A stretch of DNA of 64,000 nt, taken from Candidatus Micrarchaeota archaeon (GTDB taxonomy: Archaea; Micrarchaeota; Micrarchaeia; Anstonellales; Bilamarchaeaceae). The stretch is from contig JBFLVJ010000003.1 of the NCBI GenBank assembly GCA_040758595.1, forward strand, positions 20,721-84,720, given 5' to 3'. Below, piece after piece: positions 3,547 to 64,000 of this stretch. Both the position numbers and the translations under genes were made by a program. Position 1 is the stretch's first letter, and every line of letters begins with the position of its first letter. The notes under the pieces were generated by a model that saw only the letters and a list, made by a program, of their open reading frames with translations, did no database searches and was not told the origin of the DNA.

Positions 3547-5307
3547 ATGACCAAGAACATCAACCGGGCAGTGAATCTCACATCCTATTTCATCACGCTC
3601 CCCCCTGCCTCGTACATCCTGCTGGCTATCGTGGTCCTAGGAGCCGTTTTCGGCCTTCTCGTGAATCTAGGCTCGCTCAAACCCGGGGAGACGGCTATAG
3701 CCGACGGGCTGATGCTCCTCACCTTGCCTGCGCTGCTGTCTGCCACGGTAATCAAGCTGCTGGTGCGGAGAATGCCCTTCCGGAGGATAGCGGCTACCGC
3801 GCTGGCAGGAGAAGCGGTCTATTCCGTCGCCTACCTCCTGAGCATGCTGCTCACAGGAGTCAACGAGATCTGGGGCCAGATGGTCCTGCTCGTGGGCTCA
3901 GCCATCGTATTCGTGCTATGGTATGTCATAGCCCGCTTCGTGTTCATACTGAAATACCGTTCGGTGCTGTTCGCCATGCTCCAGCTGCTGTTCTATCTGA
4001 TATTCCTGCTGAGCAACCAGGCGCTATACGTCTCGGATGAACCGATACTGGATGTGGCCCTCAAGTTCTATCTCTCTTCATTCGTCCTGCTCGTGGCCCT
4101 GGTGCTTTTCTTCTTCATAATAAACGCGCCGATGAAGAAGAATCTTGGTCTGAGCAGCACGGATGCGCTCTCGCATGTGTTCAACCAGTGGCTCTACCAC
4201 AACAAAGACCTGGAGAAGGTGTTCGAGCAAGTGGGCGAAGACGCCAAGACCACTCTTTGCGTGGCCGGCTTCAGGATGGAGAATGGCACCGTATTCTTCG
4301 TGACCCCTAACGTGCATTTCGGCCCCTTCGGCAACCTAGGGGGCAGCGAGTTCTCGCACCTCATCGCGGAGCGGATAGACGCAAAATACGGCTCCAAGAC
4401 CTTCGTCTTCCATGGGACCGCCACCCATGACCTGAATCCGGTCTCTAGCGAGCAGATATCCAAGATCCTTGCCGGGTTCGATTCGTCTCTAGAAGAAGCC
4501 AGATTCAGGAAGGCCAAGGCGGGATTGTCGCTGGGCGCCGAGATGGAGTGCAAAGCACAGGCCCTTCTGCTGGATCGGTCCGGGATAATCTCACTGAGCC
4601 GGGCCCCTGAAGTCACCGAAGACATCAACCTGGGGCTTGGACTCTCCCTCCTAGCCGAGGCCGAGAAGAGACTGGATTCGGCCATGGTCATAGACCAGCA
4701 CAACGCCGAGACCGGCGACATCACCAGTTTCGAGCCGGGAAGCCAGATCGGCTATCGGTACATGAGGGCGATACAGGATGCGCTCTCCAAGAAGCCCGCC
4801 ATGAAACCATTGAAGCTGGGGGTTTCCTCCAGCGATTCCAAATCACCCGTCATAGGGAAAGCCGGCATCAAGGTAGCTGTATTCGGCACCGAACCGGAAT
4901 ATGTGGTGGTGCTGATAGATTCCAATGGAGTCACACCCGGATTCAAGGAGCGGATAGATGCCGAGGTCTCCGCGGTCGGCAAGAAGCTCGGCCGTGATTT
5001 CGTTGCCGGGGTGTTCACCACCGACACCCACCAGACCAACATGGTCCGGGGAGTGCTCAATCCTCTCAAGGAAGAAGGGGATACCCTCAGACTGATATCC
5101 GAAGCATGCGAGGAAGCGGCCTCATGCATGAAGGAAGCGGAATTCTTCCAAAACACCAGGTGGTTCGACATCAAGGTCCTGGGCGCCAAGCAGTCCATAG
5201 AGGTAATATCGACCGTCAATTCCATAGTGGCTGTCGCGAAGATAACCTTCCCGCTTATCCTCCTGGGCGGGGTCCTTCTGCTCATAGCATTGGCGACCCG
5301 CATCTGA
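3547..5307 (+). CDS. Large polytopic membrane protein with a C-terminal soluble domain (DUF2070-like archaeal family)
   Basis: About 6 N-terminal TM helices are followed by a ~350-aa soluble domain and a final TM segment. The size and architecture match archaeal DUF2070 proteins. The assignment is from memory only. Confidence 0.35.
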   Translation: MTKNINRAVNLTSYFITLPPASYILLAIVVLGAVFGLLVNLGSLKPGETAIADGLMLLTLPALLSATVIKLLVRRMPFRRIAATALAGEAVYSVAYLLSMLLTGVNEIWGQMVLLVGSAIVFVLWYVIARFVFILKYRSVLFAMLQLLFYLIFLLSNQALYVSDEPILDVALKFYLSSFVLLVALVLFFFIINAPMKKNLGLSSTDALSHVFNQWLYHNKDLEKVFEQVGEDAKTTLCVAGFRMENGTVFFVTPNVHFGPFGNLGGSEFSHLIAERIDAKYGSKTFVFHGTATHDLNPVSSEQISKILAGFDSSLEEARFRKAKAGLSLGAEMECKAQALLLDRSGIISLSRAPEVTEDINLGLGLSLLAEAEKRLDSAMVIDQHNAETGDITSFEPGSQIGYRYMRAIQDALSKKPAMKPLKLGVSSSDSKSPVIGKAGIKVAVFGTEPEYVVVLIDSNGVTPGFKERIDAEVSAVGKKLGRDFVAGVFTTDTHQTNMVRGVLNPLKEEGDTLRLISEACEEAASCMKEAEFFQNTRWFDIKVLGAKQSIEVISTVNSIVAVAKITFPLILLGGVLLLIALATRI

Positions 5308-13854: not shown

Positions 13855-13934
13855 ACTCTTTATCCCCTTCTTCTATGTGGATGTTCGGGAGAGCGGGTTT
13901 TCCGTTCTGGGTCCTGTGTCTCGGGCGTTGCGCT

Positions 13935-13961
13935 CGAAACACGGAACCCGAAACACGGAAC
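13935..13961. repeat. Tandem direct repeat CGAAACACGGAAC x2 within a motif-rich intergenic region upstream of glmS
   Basis: Read directly: cgaaacacggaacc-cgaaacacggaaca. It is flanked by ggagaccgg x2 and GGGTTTT/GGTCTCG-type motifs that recur near the tRNAs. Confidence 0.5.
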
Positions 13962-14023
13962 ACTGAACCCGGAGACCGGGGGCTGGAGACCGGAAACCGT
14001 TTTCTCGAAACAGGTGAATCCTG

Positions 14024-23191: not shown

Positions 23192-23474
23192 GAAGAAGAA
23201 AGCCGGGTAAGGGAGATGTCCTCCCTGTTCCCGATTGTGGGTCGGGGATTTGAACCCCTCTACTCCGCTTTATGCCTTATCATCAGCCGAAGCCTCAGAA
23301 AAGCGGACTGCAGGCGGATGCATAACCGATCTGCCAACCCGGCTTTCAAAAAGCTGGGTGCTTTGAACGGAATGACGTTCAAACCGAACCCGGCTTTCAA
23401 AGAAAGCCGCGCCTCCTGGGCGAGTAGTCGTCCAAAGGAACTCGGCTTCCGTCCTTTTCAATACGGGATTGCTT

Positions 23475-23484: not shown

Positions 23485-23505
23485 TAGCAGGCAACTAAAC
23501 TCAAG

Positions 23506-23701
23506 GGCTCATAGCTCAGCTTGGTAGAGCGTCGGACTTTTACTGTCTCCGGTCTCGGGTTTCCGACAGAACGATGTATCGTTCTGTGGACCAGAGAAAT
23601 GCCCGGCATTTCTCCCGGTCCGGTTTCGTTAACGGAACCGGGAACGGGAAACTGGAAACACAAGAGATCCGCAGGTCGAGGGTTCGAATCCCTCTGAGCC
23701 C
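23506..23701 (+). tRNA. tRNA-Lys (anticodon UUU) interrupted by a 122-nt intron at canonical position 37/38 (intron 23544-23665). No encoded CCA
   Basis: 5' exon GGGCTCATAGCTCAGCTTGGTAGAGCGTCGGACTTTTA and 3' exon ATCCGCAGGTCGAGGGTTCGAATCCCTCTGAGCCCG. The acceptor stem GGGCTCA/TGAGCCC, D-stem GCTC/GAGC and T-arm GAGGG-TTCGAAT-CCCTC are all perfect. The intron contains several perfect hairpins. Confidence 0.8.
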
Positions 23702-23798
23702 GTTTTTGCTTCCGGTCTCCAGTTCCCGGTTTCGAGTTCTGGGTTTCGTGTTCCGGCTCCCGTCGTGACGCAGATTTTAAACGCTTTCCAGAGAAGAG

Positions 23799-52486: not shown

Positions 52487-53835
52487 ATCATATCAACGAG
52501 CATCAGATCCGGGTCCTCGAGGTGTCTCATCACCGTGTTCATGAATTCGGTGGCCTCGGCCCCGTCAGCCACGCGGTGGTCGAAGCAGAGCGAGATGCCC
52601 ATTATCTTCCTCGGCTTGACCTTCCCGCCGACCATCGTCGGCATCTCCTTTATCCTGTGGACCCCCATTATCGCTATCTCGGGCGGGTTGATTATGGGCG
52701 TGGAGTACATGCCCCCGACGCTTCCGACATTGGTTATGCTGAAGGTGCCGCCCCGTATCTCGTCAAGGGTAAGCTTCCTCTCCTTGGCCTTTGCGGCCAG
52801 GTGCTCTATCTCTTGGGCGATCTCGATTATCGAGCGCCGGTCCACATCCTTGATGACCGGGACCATGAGGCCTTCGGGTGTGTTGACCGCGATGCCGATA
52901 TTGTGCTTCGCCCTTATCACGAGCTCGCCCGCGCCCTCATCGAAGTTCGCGTTGAACCTCGGGAACTCCTTCAAGGCTATGGCGCACGCCTTCACGATGA
53001 AGGAGAGATATGTCAGCTTCACGCCTTTGGAGGCGAAGTTCTTCTTCTCCTTCTCCCGGACTATCGATAGCTTCGTGATATCCACGAAGTCCATGCCGCA
53101 TGCGTGCGGGATGTGCGTCTTGGAATAGGTCATCCTCTCTGCGATGACCTTTCTTAGCCTGGTGAGGGGGACGTGCTTGTCGCCCTCTTCGGATGCGACC
53201 GGCATCGGAGGGCTTGCAGTCCGGCCGGAGATGACCGCCCCTGCACCGGCAGTCTCGGTCCCTGAGGTCCCCGGTCCCGGGGTTTCGGGTTTTGCGGTTC
53301 CGGGGCCTGCGCCCTTCGCTCTGGCAAGATCCCCCTCGGTTATCCTGCCCCCGGGCCCGGTTCCCTCCACCTTTGTGATGTCCATGCCCATCTCGCGGGC
53401 GTGCTTCCTCGTGGCCGGTGTCGCGAGCACGCGGCCGGCAGGCAAAGGCGTTCTGGGTCCCGGGGTCTCGGGTTTCGTTGTTCCGGGTTGCGCGGCAAGC
53501 GGAGCTGGTCTGGCGGCTCCGGGTTCCGGAGTTTTGGGTTTTGTTGTTTTAGGTCTAGGTGTTGCGGGTTCAGCAGCTGCCGCGCTCTCTCCGGCAGCGC
53601 CTATGACCACGAGCACCTCGCCGACCTTGACCACGTCGCCTTCCTTGAATCCGACCTTGAGTACCGTGCCCGAAGAGGGCGATGGCATCTCCACGATCGC
53701 CTTGTCGGTCTCTATCTCGGCCAGCACCTGGTCGGCCTTGACCGGATCTCCCTCTTTCACATGCCATTTCACTATGGTGCCTTCGTTGATACCTTCGCCC
53801 ACATCCGGAAACCTGAATTCTGTCGCGATATCCAT
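52483..53835 (-). CDS. Dihydrolipoamide acyltransferase (E2) with N-terminal lipoyl domain and Pro/Thr-rich repeated linkers
   Basis: Lipoyl-lysine motif EIETDKA, then repeated linkers (TTKPETPGPRTP / TAKPETPGPGTSGTE). The E3-binding domain and the catalytic DHRVADG are present. Confidence 0.85.
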   Translation of the reverse strand: MDIATEFRFPDVGEGINEGTIVKWHVKEGDPVKADQVLAEIETDKAIVEMPSPSSGTVLKVGFKEGDVVKVGEVLVVIGAAGESAAAAEPATPRPKTTKPKTPEPGAARPAPLAAQPGTTKPETPGPRTPLPAGRVLATPATRKHAREMGMDITKVEGTGPGGRITEGDLARAKGAGPGTAKPETPGPGTSGTETAGAGAVISGRTASPPMPVASEEGDKHVPLTRLRKVIAERMTYSKTHIPHACGMDFVDITKLSIVREKEKKNFASKGVKLTYLSFIVKACAIALKEFPRFNANFDEGAGELVIRAKHNIGIAVNTPEGLMVPVIKDVDRRSIIEIAQEIEHLAAKAKERKLTLDEIRGGTFSITNVGSVGGMYSTPIINPPEIAIMGVHRIKEMPTMVGGKVKPRKIMGISLCFDHRVADGAEATEFMNTVMRHLEDPDLMLVDMI

Positions 53836-58326: not shown

Positions 58327-59016
58327 TTAGGCCCTTCTGGATGGCTGAGGGGTCTGCGGGCGCCTCATGGACGGCAACTGGATGACATCAGCCATCTTCA
58401 TCGGCGCCTTGATGCTGGCGGCCATCTCCAGAGGCATCATCTTGGCCATGGTTTCCTTGGCGGCTTTCCTCGCTTTCGGGACGCCCTCTTTTTCCAGCAG
58501 CCTCAGGAAGTCCATATGGCTAGGGGTGTCTTGCATCTGCTTGAGCAGGCTGCGGAAACCCTTGCAGTCATATGTTGACATCTCGGCCATGAATATCTTG
58601 GCCCCCTGGTCTGTGAAATTGCCTCTGCACAGCAGCGTTGCGGCATCATCTACCAGTCTCTGGATGGAGACCATATCCTCGGTCTTGCCGAACGCCTGGA
58701 GCACGATGACCGCGACCTTCTTCATGTTGCTCTCCCAGCTCTCGCCGACATCCACGCCCCTCCTCTTGAGCAGGGAGCTGAGTATCGAAATCCGGTGCTC
58801 TACCTTATCGTATAGAAGCAGCCTAACATCATCAGGCGGAGCCATCCTCTCGGCGATCTCTCCGAGGACATAGTCCATCCTGTCGTAGGCGGCCACGAGG
58901 CCCTTCTCGTCCCGGGCATTGAGCAACATCTCGCGTGTGCCTTTGGCAAGCACCGCATTGGCCTCCCTCCAGAAGGCCCGTTCATCGAAGCCGGCAAGCG
59001 GCATATTCCCGTCCAT
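58327..59016 (-). CDS. Hypothetical protein
   Basis: 229-aa ORF with coherent codon usage and no recognisable motif. Confidence 0.35.
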   Translation of the reverse strand: MDGNMPLAGFDERAFWREANAVLAKGTREMLLNARDEKGLVAAYDRMDYVLGEIAERMAPPDDVRLLLYDKVEHRISILSSLLKRRGVDVGESWESNMKKVAVIVLQAFGKTEDMVSIQRLVDDAATLLCRGNFTDQGAKIFMAEMSTYDCKGFRSLLKQMQDTPSHMDFLRLLEKEGVPKARKAAKETMAKMMPLEMAASIKAPMKMADVIQLPSMRRPQTPQPSRRA

Positions 59017-60553: not shown

Positions 60554-60681
60554 ACCCATGACACAAAACCCAGAACTCGAAACAAATGGAAAGTGGTGCT
60601 GTCGTGGCATCGCTGCGCTCGCTCCTTCCCTATCTTTCCTGAGCCCAAACCCAAGACTGGAAACTGGAGACGAATGAAAGA

Positions 60682-60905
60682 TGGGGCCGCCGAGATTTGA
60701 ACTCAGATCAAGGCCTTTTCCTGAAACCGATGGCTTTTACTGCCTCAGGGCTTTCCATGAAAGCTTTGCCCTTGGCTATGCAGAAGTCAAAGGTTTCACC
60801 CGAAGGCCCCAGTCTACCAGGGAAGCTGCGTTCCGGGTTTTCTGTTTTGGGTTCTGAAATCAAAACCCGAAACTCGAGACCCGAGACGCTTTAGCCCACG
60901 GCCCC
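60682..60905 (-). tRNA. Intron-containing tRNA on the minus strand (tentatively tRNA-Pro, anticodon CGG), probably with two introns
   Basis: On the minus strand, 5' GGGGCCG pairs perfectly with 3' CGGCCCC followed by discriminator A, 224 nt apart. The T-arm CTGAG-TTCAAAT-CTCGG is perfect. A candidate anticodon stem-loop GGGCC-TTCGGG|intron|A-GGCCT places an ~84-nt intron at 37/38. About 70 extra nt in the D-arm region imply a second intron that I could not resolve by eye. Confidence 0.5.
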
Positions 60906-61031
60906 TTGAAAATCGCAAAACTATCTCCACACAGTCTCCCCATGCTTCGATGAGAACCACTAGCACAGCAGTCCCCATTGTCTTGCGTTTCTTAGATATT
61001 GGATAACGATTCTCATTTTAAATGATGGCTC

Positions 61032-61826
61032 TCAGCCACTTGGCCTCAGAATTTCAGGGTCTACACTACAGACAATCGTTATCTCAGTGTTTTTCAAGAG
61101 ATCGTTCTCCCTAACAATTTGTCTAATCGCCCCCTTCACCCGTTTTTGCTGTTTACGATTGAGGGATGACCATTTGACAGGATATTCCTTTTTGCCATCA
61201 CCCGGGAAAATGATGTGATCCACAGAAAGAAGTCGGTCCATCCTGCTCGCATTTCTATGATACACATTCAAAATGGGCAGTAACATGTCCATGTTCCTCT
61301 TTAAGTAATTCTTTACTCTTGCCCCCAGTCCGCGTTTACCCATGGCTCGCTCGTAGCTTTCCCGCACCCTCCTGCTTATATGCGCTCTTTGTAGCCGGTG
61401 CAGCTCGTTCAAGGCTCTATGGATGTTGACATACGCTTTACTCATCAATAGCTCATAAGCTTCTCTCGTGGTTTTGTTTCCCTCCGGAGCAAAAACCTCC
61501 CTCTCGAGCCCATAGATAACCATGTTTTCCCTCTCGATGCTGTAGTCTCTCGAGTATCTATTTATCAGACTGAAGTTCTGGATTACGCGACTAGGTACGC
61601 CACTCTGGGCTCTCTTAGTTAGCTTGTACTCCTTCTCCTCCTTCCTGACGAACCCTTTCTCCTGTAGCTTCTTCAATTTCCTGTGGAGTTCAGATACCGA
61701 AATCCTATAACCATGAACCCCCTTTATATATCGGATAATCCCGGGCCAATCCTTCTCCCCGCTCATAAGTGCATCGAGAATCTGGGGCATATTCCTCGTT
61801 CTAAGAAGTCCTGCTATCTCTTCCAT
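61032..61826 (-). CDS. Hypothetical protein with N-terminal winged-helix-like region, in the low-GC island
   Basis: 264-aa ORF. The N-terminus (ILDALMSGEKDWPGIIRYIKGVHGYRISVSELHRKLKKLQEKGFVRKEE) looks like a wHTH (PadR/MarR-like). GC is ~43% against the ~60% background. Confidence 0.35.
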   Translation of the reverse strand: MEEIAGLLRTRNMPQILDALMSGEKDWPGIIRYIKGVHGYRISVSELHRKLKKLQEKGFVRKEEKEYKLTKRAQSGVPSRVIQNFSLINRYSRDYSIERENMVIYGLEREVFAPEGNKTTREAYELLMSKAYVNIHRALNELHRLQRAHISRRVRESYERAMGKRGLGARVKNYLKRNMDMLLPILNVYHRNASRMDRLLSVDHIIFPGDGKKEYPVKWSSLNRKQQKRVKGAIRQIVRENDLLKNTEITIVCSVDPEILRPSG

Positions 61827-61896
61827 CTTATATCTCCACTTCCATTTTGGTAGTATAATTTATGAAGAGAAAATCCTTAAAAGGTTATATACGGCT

Positions 61897-62346
61897 GTGG
61901 CCGGAGGTAATGTTATGGGGTGTGAAAAGGTTACGTCCATCTTGCCAAAAAATTTCTTGGCGGTCGCTTTCGCTCACTGTTATAAACTCACACACACATC
62001 ACATATCTCAACGGAGAGTGTTATGCGTTTATACGTGGTTTGCCGGAAGTGTAATACAAAGATTTACTTCAGGAGCGAAGCAAAGACGCGTCACGAGCTG
62101 CCCCATCATTTTGAGTTGAGCTGTAATGTCCTCCTCTGCAGGCACAAGGAAATCTACACTCCTGGGGATGTAATCGCAGAGCCGAATCTATCTGCCTCTT
62201 CTGGAGCACTTCTTGGCGGTCTCATAGGCTTGGTGGGCGGACCCGAGGGTGCCATCATCTGTGGGATTCTAGGGGCAGGGATAGGGGAAAAGATAGAACG
62301 GGATGAACACGAAGCTGTCAGACGCTTCAATGAGGTGCAAGCCTGA
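61897..62346 (+). CDS. Hypothetical protein with CxxC...C..C zinc-ribbon-like N-terminus and a Gly-zipper C-terminus (low-GC island)
   Basis: CRKCNTKIYF ... CNVLLCRH, then GALLGGLIGLVGGPEGAIICGILGAGIG. Confidence 0.3.
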   Translation: MAGGNVMGCEKVTSILPKNFLAVAFAHCYKLTHTSHISTESVMRLYVVCRKCNTKIYFRSEAKTRHELPHHFELSCNVLLCRHKEIYTPGDVIAEPNLSASSGALLGGLIGLVGGPEGAIICGILGAGIGEKIERDEHEAVRRFNEVQA

Positions 62347-62681
62347 TGGGACTTCCGGTTATAGACCCCCTCGTTTTTTTCCCATTCCTTCTCCCGTTAT
62401 TCTACTCTGTATGGCGACTTTATGGAGCTGGTTTTAGACTTACTGCACAGCTCGCGATAGATGTTCTTGCCCGGAGCATCGCCGTTGCCACTGCGATTTC
62501 GTACTCGTTTGTCATTATTTCAAGTAACCTCCCGGCGGAAATAAACCTGGATGTGTGGCTCACACCACTTCCTCTAACCATCGTGGGCAGTGTTCTCCTT
62601 GTGGCATATGTCTGCAGGGATTTGAAGAACACACTTGATGTTCACCTCAAAGAGCCAAAAGAGGTCAAAACACAGAAATGA
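62346..62681 (+). CDS. Small hypothetical membrane protein (low-GC island)
   Basis: Three hydrophobic helices. Start and stop overlap the upstream gene (ATGA at 62343-62349). Confidence 0.3.
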   Translation: MGLPVIDPLVFFPFLLPLFYSVWRLYGAGFRLTAQLAIDVLARSIAVATAISYSFVIISSNLPAEINLDVWLTPLPLTIVGSVLLVAYVCRDLKNTLDVHLKEPKEVKTQK

Positions 62682-62723
62682 ACTGGCGATGGCGGGCGCC
62701 ACCTAACTACGGGACCCGTCAGT

Positions 62724-64000
62724 TTAGCCCCTCGATCTCCAGAATGCCAAACCTACAACCATGGCAAATGCTGTGGCCAAAGCAACTCTAAATATAGCCT
62801 CAAAGCTCATTAGGTCTATTCGTATCGTTTTCAAGCCGGCAAACTCCTGCCCCGCCTCATCTGCCATTGATTTAGCTGAGATGTATCGTTGCTCTCGAAA
62901 TAGTTGGTCGGCCTCATCAAGATTTTCGGCAGCTTCTCTTTGTTTTAGCTCGTATTCTTGGGAGAGCAGGATATTAACCCACTGTTGTTCGTACCTGGCG
63001 CTTGCGTTTTGAAGGGCATCTTCCGCATTTTTCCGATGTGCCATGAGGTATACGTTCGTGTTCTTTGCATCCATTGCCGCCCATTGCCTTTTGTCCCGGA
63101 GATACTCTGTTCCGGCCTCGAGTGTGCTGAATATGTTCCCCCGTCTCCTTGAAAATCCGCTACAGTCACCCTCCTTTAGACCATCCTTGAAGAGGCTGAC
63201 TGTTGTCGTTATCATGTCATCCTTGCCCGCGGCATTCACCAATTCTTCATTTATGCTGGCCCAGACCAGAGACATGTTGCTAAAGGTCCTTCTGTCTTTG
63301 GTTACAGCAGTTCCGATTTCGGAACCTGCTGACGCATACTCATAGTATGCCGCTCCAGCACTATCACCGACAACACAGGCCGCTAATTCAGCGACCTCTA
63401 GAACTGGCTGTGCTTCGTTCAGGATATTTATGCCAGTTACATACCCTCGCACTGTCTTTGTAGCCTGCCGGCTCCAGCCATAGGGTTCAAGCTTTTCCAG
63501 CAATGGGGGCAAGACAGAACCATGTTCTTCAACCTGTCTGTTGGCCTCGTGGTTAAGGAAAGAATCCAAGGTATCGGTTATGCCCGAGAGCATGCCGCAG
63601 CTCTCGCTTGCAATCTTTTCTAGGTCATAGCACTCGTACATCAAGAGGTACTGGTCTGAAATACGGCTGACTTCTAAATCCGAAACAAGACCATGTCCCT
63701 CAAACAGGTCGGTTAGTAGGTTCTCATCCTCAATAATCCTGCAATCTGACGCGACAATAAGCCTATGATCCCCACCATCGTCAGTGGGCATTATGACACT
63801 GTATTTCTTCTCGTTGAAATAGAATTGCTCCGGTCTATATCCCCAATGATACTCCGTTGTGTCGTACTCCACGTACAAATCCTTGAGACTTGTGCAATCT
63901 GTCAAGAGGGTGGCTGCAGGCCGATCTGCACGTTCCTTGTCAGATCCCACTCCCAGACCTGCTATTACGAAGATGGCCAGTACAATGAGAACCCCTATCG
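62724..64000 (-). CDS. Hypothetical membrane-anchored protein, N-terminus outside the window (low-GC island)
   Basis: The frame stays open upstream of the annotated start through a hydrophobic helix (...IGVLIVLAIFVIAGLGVGSD) to the window edge. There is a C-terminal TM (FRVALATAFAMVVGLAFW). Confidence 0.35.
   Translation of the reverse strand, partial: IGVLIVLAIFVIAGLGVGSDKERADRPAATLLTDCTSLKDLYVEYDTTEYHWGYRPEQFYFNEKKYSVIMPTDDGGDHRLIVASDCRIIEDENLLTDLFEGHGLVSDLEVSRISDQYLLMYECYDLEKIASESCGMLSGITDTLDSFLNHEANRQVEEHGSVLPPLLEKLEPYGWSRQATKTVRGYVTGINILNEAQPVLEVAELAACVVGDSAGAAYYEYASAGSEIGTAVTKDRRTFSNMSLVWASINEELVNAAGKDDMITTTVSLFKDGLKEGDCSGFSRRRGNIFSTLEAGTEYLRDKRQWAAMDAKNTNVYLMAHRKNAEDALQNASARYEQQWVNILLSQEYELKQREAAENLDEADQLFREQRYISAKSMADEAGQEFAGLKTIRIDLMSFEAIFRVALATAFAMVVGLAFWRSRG

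Follow-up and report, generated by a model that had tools for sequence, protein, structure and literature searches.

A tRNA-Pro(CGG) gene interrupted by two introns lies on the minus strand of the window, the 64-kb stretch of DNA from Candidatus Micrarchaeota archaeon that was analysed as a whole. Splice-aware alignment divides its 224 nucleotides into three exons, with one intron in the D-loop and the other at the canonical position 37/38 (Table 1). Read along the minus strand from 60905 to 60682, the gene starts with GGGGCCGUG and finishes with GAGUUCAAAUCUCGGCGGCCCCA. A Logan contig and contigs of the NCBI MAG GCA_049322935.1 match the window at 100% identity, the locus included (Logan contig L001, MAG contig L126), and a neighbouring kinase with 100% identity is assigned by NCBI to Candidatus Micrarchaeota archaeon. 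The original prediction, made from the letters of this DNA and given in tRNA sense, had the 224-nt coordinates exactly right, and the parts it named are present: the acceptor halves GGGGCCG and CGGCCCC with the discriminator A, and an anticodon arm GGGCC-UUCGGG|A-GGCCU with the anticodon CGG. The T arm, CUGAG-UUCAAAU-CUCGG, is likewise there, with one U·G pair where it had been called perfect. The intron at 37/38 was placed correctly and measures 82 nt rather than about 84 nt, and the extra sequence of the 5' half, estimated at about 70 nt and taken to imply a second intron in the D-arm region, corresponds to a 69-nt D-loop insert that the profile alignment described below puts at 15/16, with BHB geometry at both junctions. 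Both introns form long hairpins; that of intron 1 is imperfect, and its 5' arm is made of about five heptads (GNGUYUC), within which Tandem Repeats Finder (TRF) reports a period-7 array at 60865-60887.

Table 1. Positions in the window of the tRNA genes, splice-site elements, heptad motif copies and associated features.
Feature	Position	Strand	Description
tRNA-Pro(CGG) gene, whole	60682..60905	minus	224 nt; CCA not encoded; T-rich trailer after the gene
Exon 1	60891..60905	minus	GGGGCCGUGGGCUAA, 15 nt; tRNA positions 1-15 (acceptor 5' strand, U8, G9, D-stem 5' strand GGCU, A14, A15)
Intron 1	60822..60890	minus	69 nt; D-loop, between 15/16
Exon 2	60799..60821	minus	CCUGGUAGACUGGGGCCUUCGGG, 23 nt; remaining D-loop, D-stem 3' strand GACU, G26, anticodon stem 5' strand, loop to G37
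Anticodon CGG	60800-60802	minus	within exon 2
Intron 2	60717..60798	minus	82 nt; canonical 37/38
Exon 3	60682..60716	minus	AGGCCUUGAUCUGAGUUCAAAUCUCGGCGGCCCCA, 35 nt; A38, anticodon stem 3' strand, 4-nt variable loop, T arm, acceptor 3' strand, A73
BHB 1, helix H	60893..60896 / 60824-60827	minus	GGCU (D-stem 5' strand) / AGCU; 4/4 pairs
BHB 1, bulges	60890-60892; 60821-60823	minus	AAA; UCC
BHB 1, inner helix	60886-60889 / 60828-60831	minus	GCGU / ACGC; 4 bp
BHB 2, helix H	60801..60804 / 60719-60722	minus	UUCG / AGGA; 3/4 pairs and one G·A
BHB 2, bulges	60798-60800; 60716-60718	minus	GGU; AAA
BHB 2, inner helix	60792-60797 / 60723-60728	minus	GAAACC / GGUUUC; 6 bp
tRNA-Pro trailer	60566..60664	minus	motif copies at 60647-60664 and 60566-60583
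Nearest TATA-like box of tRNA-Pro	61016..61023	minus	ATTTAAAA; about 112-118 nt upstream of the mature 5' end
tRNA-Cys(GCA)	23201-23343	minus	38-nt intron at 37/38 (23270-23307); 34-nt T-loop intron at 58/59 (23216-23249)
tRNA-Lys(UUU)	23505-23702	plus	124-nt intron at 37/38; BHB '||||xx/|||x/|||x||'; TATA box -31..-24
Copies of motif GTTTCGAGTTCTGGGTTT	13937-13954, 23729-23746, 60566-60583, 60647-60664, 60863-60880		

The junctions were placed by comparison with homologous genes. A scan of the 3' end of the gene against one genome per species recovered over 120 archaeal loci, of which almost all are tRNA-Pro genes; the 22 nt of exon 3 that precede A73 (GAGUUCAAAUCUCGGCGGCCCC) recur in the tRNA-Pro of over 120 genomes of archaea. 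A profile of 65 unique intron-less archaeal tRNA-Pro sequences (74 columns) was aligned to the 224-nt sequence with up to two free long gaps, and the junctions chosen were 15|85 and 107|190 of the precursor, which correspond to tRNA positions 15/16 and 37/38. The score was 90.8 bits with two introns versus 67.7 bits with one; a third intron was rejected, as it would gain only 3.9 bits with no intron penalty applied. When the interior was dinucleotide-shuffled and both ends were kept fixed, the best two-intron score had a mean of 71.5 ± 5.1 bits, compared with the real 90.8, and a score at or above the real one was reached by none of 1000 shuffles in one run and by 1 of 400 in an earlier one. 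BHB-like geometry at both of the profile-chosen junctions appeared in 0 of the 1000 shuffles, at one junction or more in 2.7% and at neither in 97.3%. Several parses drawn by hand were also discarded, namely those with a D-stem GUCU/AGAC or GGUC and a micro-intron of 9-15 nt, and a reading as tRNA-Arg(UCG): none has support from the profile alignment, and they leave either unexplained nucleotides or a variable loop of 3 nt.

The spliced product is a 73-mer, GGGGCCGUGGGCUAACCUGGUAGACUGGGGCCUUCGGGAGGCCUUGAUCUGAGUUCAAAUCUCGGCGGCCCCA, which has the conserved nucleotides U8, A14, G18G19, A21, U33, G37, the T-loop UUCAAAU and A73. It is called as tRNA-Pro(cgg) by ARAGORN, while no call is made on the precursor or on the precursor with intron 2 alone removed; this acceptance is weak evidence, the predictor being permissive here. 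It accepts 166 of 216 alternative D-arm deletions as well as 20% of the best-spliced shuffled controls and was therefore dropped as a discriminator between junctions; the case for the gene rests on homology and on the structure of the splice sites. Running ARAGORN with a lowered threshold was of no use, since it returned 196 “genes” in the 64 kb.

For the splice sites, we used a BHB geometry in which each strand consists of a 4-nt helix strand followed by a 3-nt bulge, with cleavage after the second bulge nucleotide. Both junctions have a helix H of at least three pairs out of four, an inner helix of at least 3 bp and the exact 3-4-3 register, which together define a relaxed BHB. At the first of them, helix H is fully paired and the outer helix consists of one base pair, G9-C (pattern '|xx|xx / |||| / ||||x|'). 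With an outer helix of only 1 bp the motif is not a strict hBHBh' but a relaxed, HBh'-like BHB. The intron 2 junction is a near-strict hBHBh' motif, whose outer helix is the anticodon stem (six pairs counted; pattern '|||||| / |||x / ||||||'); in the two remaining tRNA genes of the window, the helices H of the 37/38 introns are of the same 3-of-4 style. A loose BHB scan over all position pairs was set aside, the many matches that it gave being uninformative by themselves because of the low-complexity heptads. The precursor has a predicted minimum free energy of -96.0 kcal/mol (z = -4.4), much better than its shuffles. As a reservation, the fold containing both BHB motifs, at -86.2, lies 9.8 kcal/mol above this optimum. 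Bulges are penalised in nearest-neighbour energy models, and the motif is bound and stabilised by the enzyme.

The spliced sequence also agrees with that of related tRNAs. Its nucleotides 1-22 are identical to those of tRNA-Pro(CGG) from Micrarchaeota SKW311, a gene without a D-loop intron and with a 37/38 intron of 139 nt, and both its D-stem (GGCU/GACU) and its variable loop (UGAU) equal those of a Micrarchaeaceae tRNA-Pro (contig L009). In the mature D-stem there is a single Watson-Crick pair, together with two G·U and one C·A, whereas the 5' strand of the D-stem forms three Watson-Crick pairs and one G·U with intron 1. This better pairing with the intron than with the mature partner suggests that the D-arm would form only after removal of intron 1. 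The SKW311 gene (L033, 4716-4927, plus strand) has a 19-nt direct repeat, GCAGAAACCCCTTCGCAAA, inside its intron.

Among the loci collected, a tRNA-Pro gene of Nanoarchaeota archaeon AUK188 (L076, about 3710-3971, plus strand) shares the 15/16 intron site, and there too the 5' strand of the D-stem serves as helix H (4/4), with an outer helix of 1 bp. It differs in having three predicted inserts (53, 60 and 69 nt; the two junctions other than 15/16 are placed roughly by the profile alignment), with unrelated sequences, and its 15/16 intron is not an orthologous one. A Hadarchaeota tRNA-Pro (contig L108) also combines a D-arm intron with a canonical one at 37/38. In ten MAGs of Methanobacteriaceae or Methanobacterium and one labelled Methanomicrobiales, the anticodon-loop region of tRNA-Pro holds a single large AT-rich insert (50-145 nt) whose ends are conserved (…CAGCCAUUGAA … GGGGAUGGUCA…ACACCGGAACGCUGG); the profile alignment split each of these inserts artificially.

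An orthologue with the D-loop intron was found neither in a metagenome scan nor among the kinase-neighbour relatives, in a search with the upstream ORF or in scans of viral contigs, and BHB 1 is consequently without covariation support. The metagenome pattern, exon1-N(41-101)-CCTGGTA, had one match, which was judged to be due to chance. The adjacent histidine kinase has homologues (49-52% and 35% identity) on contigs that lack this tRNA, and the viral-contig scans for exon 2 and exon 1 returned nothing or non-tRNA matches. Five IMG/VR contigs have in common the stretch GGGGCCGTGGGCTAAAT[GA]AAAA… followed by a short hairpin, and none of them has a T-loop within 300 nt of it; the stretch probably represents the conserved end of a gene (…G A V G stop) and a terminator rather than a tRNA fragment.

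All three tRNA genes of the window are interrupted. In tRNA-Cys, the T-loop intron at 58/59 has a strict BHB ('|||x||/||||/||||x|'), and the product of splicing, a 71-mer, carries U73 and a perfectly paired acceptor stem. An earlier placement of this second insert at 65/66, between T-stem and acceptor, has no BHB and was replaced; the misplacement is explained by the start of the intron, which mimics the 3' strand of the T-arm. For comparison, tRNA-Cys of ARMAN-2 has an intron at 59/60 (PMC3239211). Directly upstream of tRNA-Cys, at about 23344-23392 on the minus strand, a 15-nt direct repeat (TTTGAAAGCCGGGTT) copies the 5' end of the tRNA. The piece between the repeats reads GCCGGGU, an 8-bp hairpin (UUUGAACG...CGUUCAAA), ACCCAGC, U and UUUU. 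These elements correspond to a stem of acceptor type (one mismatch), a lone hairpin, a discriminator U and a run of T, and the piece may be a partial duplication or a remnant that resembles a mini-tRNA. The sole TATA-like box for tRNA-Cys lies upstream of this piece, at -138.

Two of these genes escape default tRNA finders. With default settings ARAGORN detected no tRNA anywhere in the 64-kb window, and at the Rfam gathering threshold tRNA-Lys was the only one found, with nothing at tRNA-Pro and with tRNA-Cys missed by both. Below the gathering threshold, Rfam gives a 14-bit partial tRNA match at the tRNA-Pro locus along with spurious miRNA-like hairpins. The intron option of ARAGORN does find tRNA-Lys, with the intron misplaced and the gene called tRNA-Leu(aag); in the Rfam alignment its anticodon loop is CUUUUA.

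With the division into exons and introns, the BHB geometry, the relatedness of the spliced product and the lineage of the host shown by the data above, the region 60682-60905 is very probably a functional tRNA-Pro(CGG) gene with two protein-spliced BHB-type introns. By analogy with published work on related organisms, from which transcription, cleavage, ligation and the type of enzyme are taken, the 224-nt region would be transcribed as part of a precursor, in which the 5' strand of the D-stem (GGCU) and the 3' end of intron 1 (AGCU) would form the 4-bp helix of the relaxed, HBh'-like BHB, with cleavage sites in the 3-nt bulges after A15 and before C16. Nucleotides 32-35 would pair with the 3' end of intron 2 to give the near-canonical hBHBh', to be cleaved after G37 and before A38. 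All four sites would be cut by the archaeal splicing endonuclease, expected to be of the ε2 type with broad specificity in this lineage, after which an RtcB-type ligase would join the three exons into the 73-nt tRNA, with CCA added post-transcriptionally. Since the other two tRNA genes of the window carry BHB introns, the organism must splice such genes. No EndA catalytic signature was found in the 64-kb window by a motif-only scan, which is a weak test. Also counting against the model are the single-pair outer helix of BHB 1, the G·A mismatch in H of BHB 2, the energy gap between the double-BHB fold and the predicted optimum, and the absence of a TATA box at the usual -25/-30, the nearest being about 115 nt upstream. 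The inserts, at 69 and 82 nt, showed no group I or group II intron core, only weak miRNA-like hairpin matches being returned by Rfam at E≤10, and neither of them has a C box or an Rfam match that would indicate a C/D-box sRNA.

Three other explanations were considered, to which together we assign only a small share of the probability; they are disfavoured by the exact BHB register, the intact exons, the lack of a duplicated tRNA segment and the interruption of all tRNA genes in the window. The first and least improbable, itself improbable, is that of a decaying pseudogene, in which the D-loop of a normal or single-intron tRNA-Pro was hit by a genome-specific repeat hairpin, the insert stays in place and the locus yields no functional tRNA. 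Such a reading would suit the minimal outer helix of BHB 1, but the insert sits in the exact 3-4-3 register with H 4/4 and a 4-bp inner helix, which the shuffles do not reproduce. Other Micrarchaeota tRNA-Pro genes have no D-loop intron, and against this stands the Nanoarchaeota tRNA-Pro with the same site and architecture. The heptad motif of intron 1 does occur in DNA that is not intronic (the tRNA trailers and one intergenic region), a promoter is missing at the usual distance, and CCG codons could be covered by a tRNA-Pro(UGG); however, every exon position is still consensus-like, as the profile score indicates, and the other tRNA genes of the window are interrupted in the same way.

Less probable still is that both introns are real and that intron 1 has other junctions, for example those of the adjacent register 14|86 or of 20|86, which would alter the mature D-loop. 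Both registers have H 4/4 (patterns 'xx|xxx/||||/x||||x' and '||||xx/||||/|xx|x|', respectively) and give products accepted by ARAGORN, but 15|85 is the optimum of the profile alignment and the only junction that yields AACCUGGUA, the D-loop of the intron-less Micrarchaeota relatives. A D-loop of 13 nt would result from 20|86, while 14|86 has two G·U pairs in H and a mismatch beside the bulge.

The third explanation concerns the DNA flanking the gene. Immediately 5' of tRNA-Pro lies a low-GC island of 3.4 kb (about 60950-64000 in the window, 2300-5600 in L126; GC 0.44-0.51 vs 0.57), whose ORFs have no Pfam matches; the only one compared with a protein set, of 264 aa (61032-61826), found nothing but itself among 5.8 billion clustered proteins. 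Two contigs of the NCBI MAG divide this stretch between them, and one of them ends about 2 kb from the tRNA, at window position ~58667 in a 229-aa gene (58327-59016). It is very unlikely that the locus is a remnant of integration (att), with part of a tRNA duplicated at the edge of this island, which begins about 50 nt upstream: the drop in GC directly 5' of the gene and the unmatched ORFs would suit it, but the tRNA gene is whole, none of its segments of at least 12 nt recurs in the 11.9 kb spanning the island, and the island has no att-like repeat and no integrase domain.

Returning to the spliced tRNA-Pro gene, the sequence of intron 1 has a counterpart elsewhere in the window. The motif GTTTCGAGTTCTGGGTTT, with up to three mismatches, occurs five times versus 0.02 expected: once in an intergenic region (13937), once in the tRNA-Lys trailer, twice in the tRNA-Pro trailer and once in intron 1. 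The arrays have a 7-nt periodicity (GNGTYTC), and the region of the trailer copy at 60566-60583 is identical at 22 of 23 positions to the stretch 23729-23751 of the tRNA-Lys trailer. A comparison set of 0.94 Mb from other archaeal loci, several of them from Micrarchaeota, contains no copy of the motif. The suggestion that the introns contain a motif family seen in other intergenic regions thus stands for the motif itself, intron 1 included, but not for the introns as such: BLAST finds no significant similarity between them and the rest of the window, nor any likeness of one intron to the other. Heptad-like matches at 53240-53580 lie inside an E2 acyltransferase gene and were set aside as coding; the linker regions of such enzymes are expected to encode repeats of this kind. 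The intergenic region 13880-14023 (plus strand), between two genes on the same strand, contains a long hairpin and heptad repeats (GRAACMC), with a sense fold of -67.5 kcal/mol (z = -4.1), and may be a structured 5' UTR or a terminator element.

We regard it as a speculative and rather unlikely idea that intron 1 is a recent acquisition from a genome-specific hairpin element of heptad repeats (GNGUYUC arrays). If true, the locus would capture the gain of a BHB intron from a dispersed repeat, the donor element being still recognisable outside the tRNAs, and would be analogous to the intron transposition proposed for Thermoproteales. Summaries of the work on that order describe up to three introns per tRNA at non-canonical sites, with sequence shared between introns taken as a sign of recent gain (PMC4090602, PMC4033280; Sugahara 2008, Fujishima 2010). 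By comparison, the present case belongs to another phylum, and the shared sequence is a short heptad motif that is also found outside introns. The motif is at any rate a small, testable lead on the source of non-canonical introns.

The closest known system is that of ARMAN-2 (Candidatus Micrarchaeum acidiphilum), from the same phylum, in which 56% of the tRNA genes are disrupted and the ε2 endonuclease cleaves strict and relaxed BHB motifs (PMC3239211), as well as a BHL-type substrate according to a structure paper from 2025 (PMC12397907). Multiple BHB or relaxed-BHB introns per tRNA are found in both organisms, and the D-arm of ARMAN-2 tRNA-Pro(CGG) has one Watson-Crick pair, as here (PMC3239211); the processing enzyme expected here is likewise a broad-specificity ε2 EndA. 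The view that multi-intron tRNAs are uncommon accordingly holds for archaea in general but not for Micrarchaeota, given the ARMAN-2 figure and the three interrupted genes out of three in the window. The pre-tRNA-Pro(GGG) of ARMAN-2 also has two introns (Fujishima et al. 2011, PMC3239211), but these are in the T-loop (53/54 and 59/60), whereas the non-canonical intron here is at D-loop position 15/16, and the introns, of 69 and 82 nt, are both long.

The combination of a canonical and a D-loop intron has a precedent in pre-tRNA-Glu(UUC) of Methanopyrus kandleri, whose 37/38 intron and relaxed HBh' D-loop intron are spliced in vitro (PMC5829648). The D-loop motif is of the same relaxed type as the one proposed here, and excision by a broad-specificity EndA has been demonstrated in vitro for M. 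kandleri (PMC5829648); the D-loop intron of M. kandleri is at 20b/21 rather than 15/16, and its host is a euryarchaeon with an (αβ)2 enzyme (PMC5829648). A BHB intron in the D-loop is also present in pre-tRNA-Thr2(UGU) of Aeropyrum pernix, where its maturation in vivo has been shown experimentally and its cleavage in vitro is slower than that of a 37/38 intron (PMC3241643). That tRNA differs in having a single intron, in a crenarchaeon whose (αβ)2 EndA has a Crenarchaea-specific loop (PMC3241643).

In view of the disrupted tRNAs of ARMAN-2, the cleavage of relaxed BHB motifs by ε2 and the splicing in vitro of a double-intron tRNA from M. kandleri, the locus belongs to a known kind, and with a two-intron layout already known from the Micrarchaeota lineage it is a tidy but ordinary example. 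It adds to the Micrarchaeota set a case that combines D-loop 15/16 and 37/38 introns, both of them unusually long, and offers a substrate on which the tolerance of an ε2-type endonuclease for a BHB with a single-bp outer helix could be tested. Its main value is as a substrate for relaxed-BHB recognition and as a warning for the annotation of DPANN genomes: since the standard tools miss interrupted tRNA genes of this window, the tRNA inventories, completeness estimates and codon-capacity inferences made for DPANN MAGs without BHB-aware predictors will be understated.
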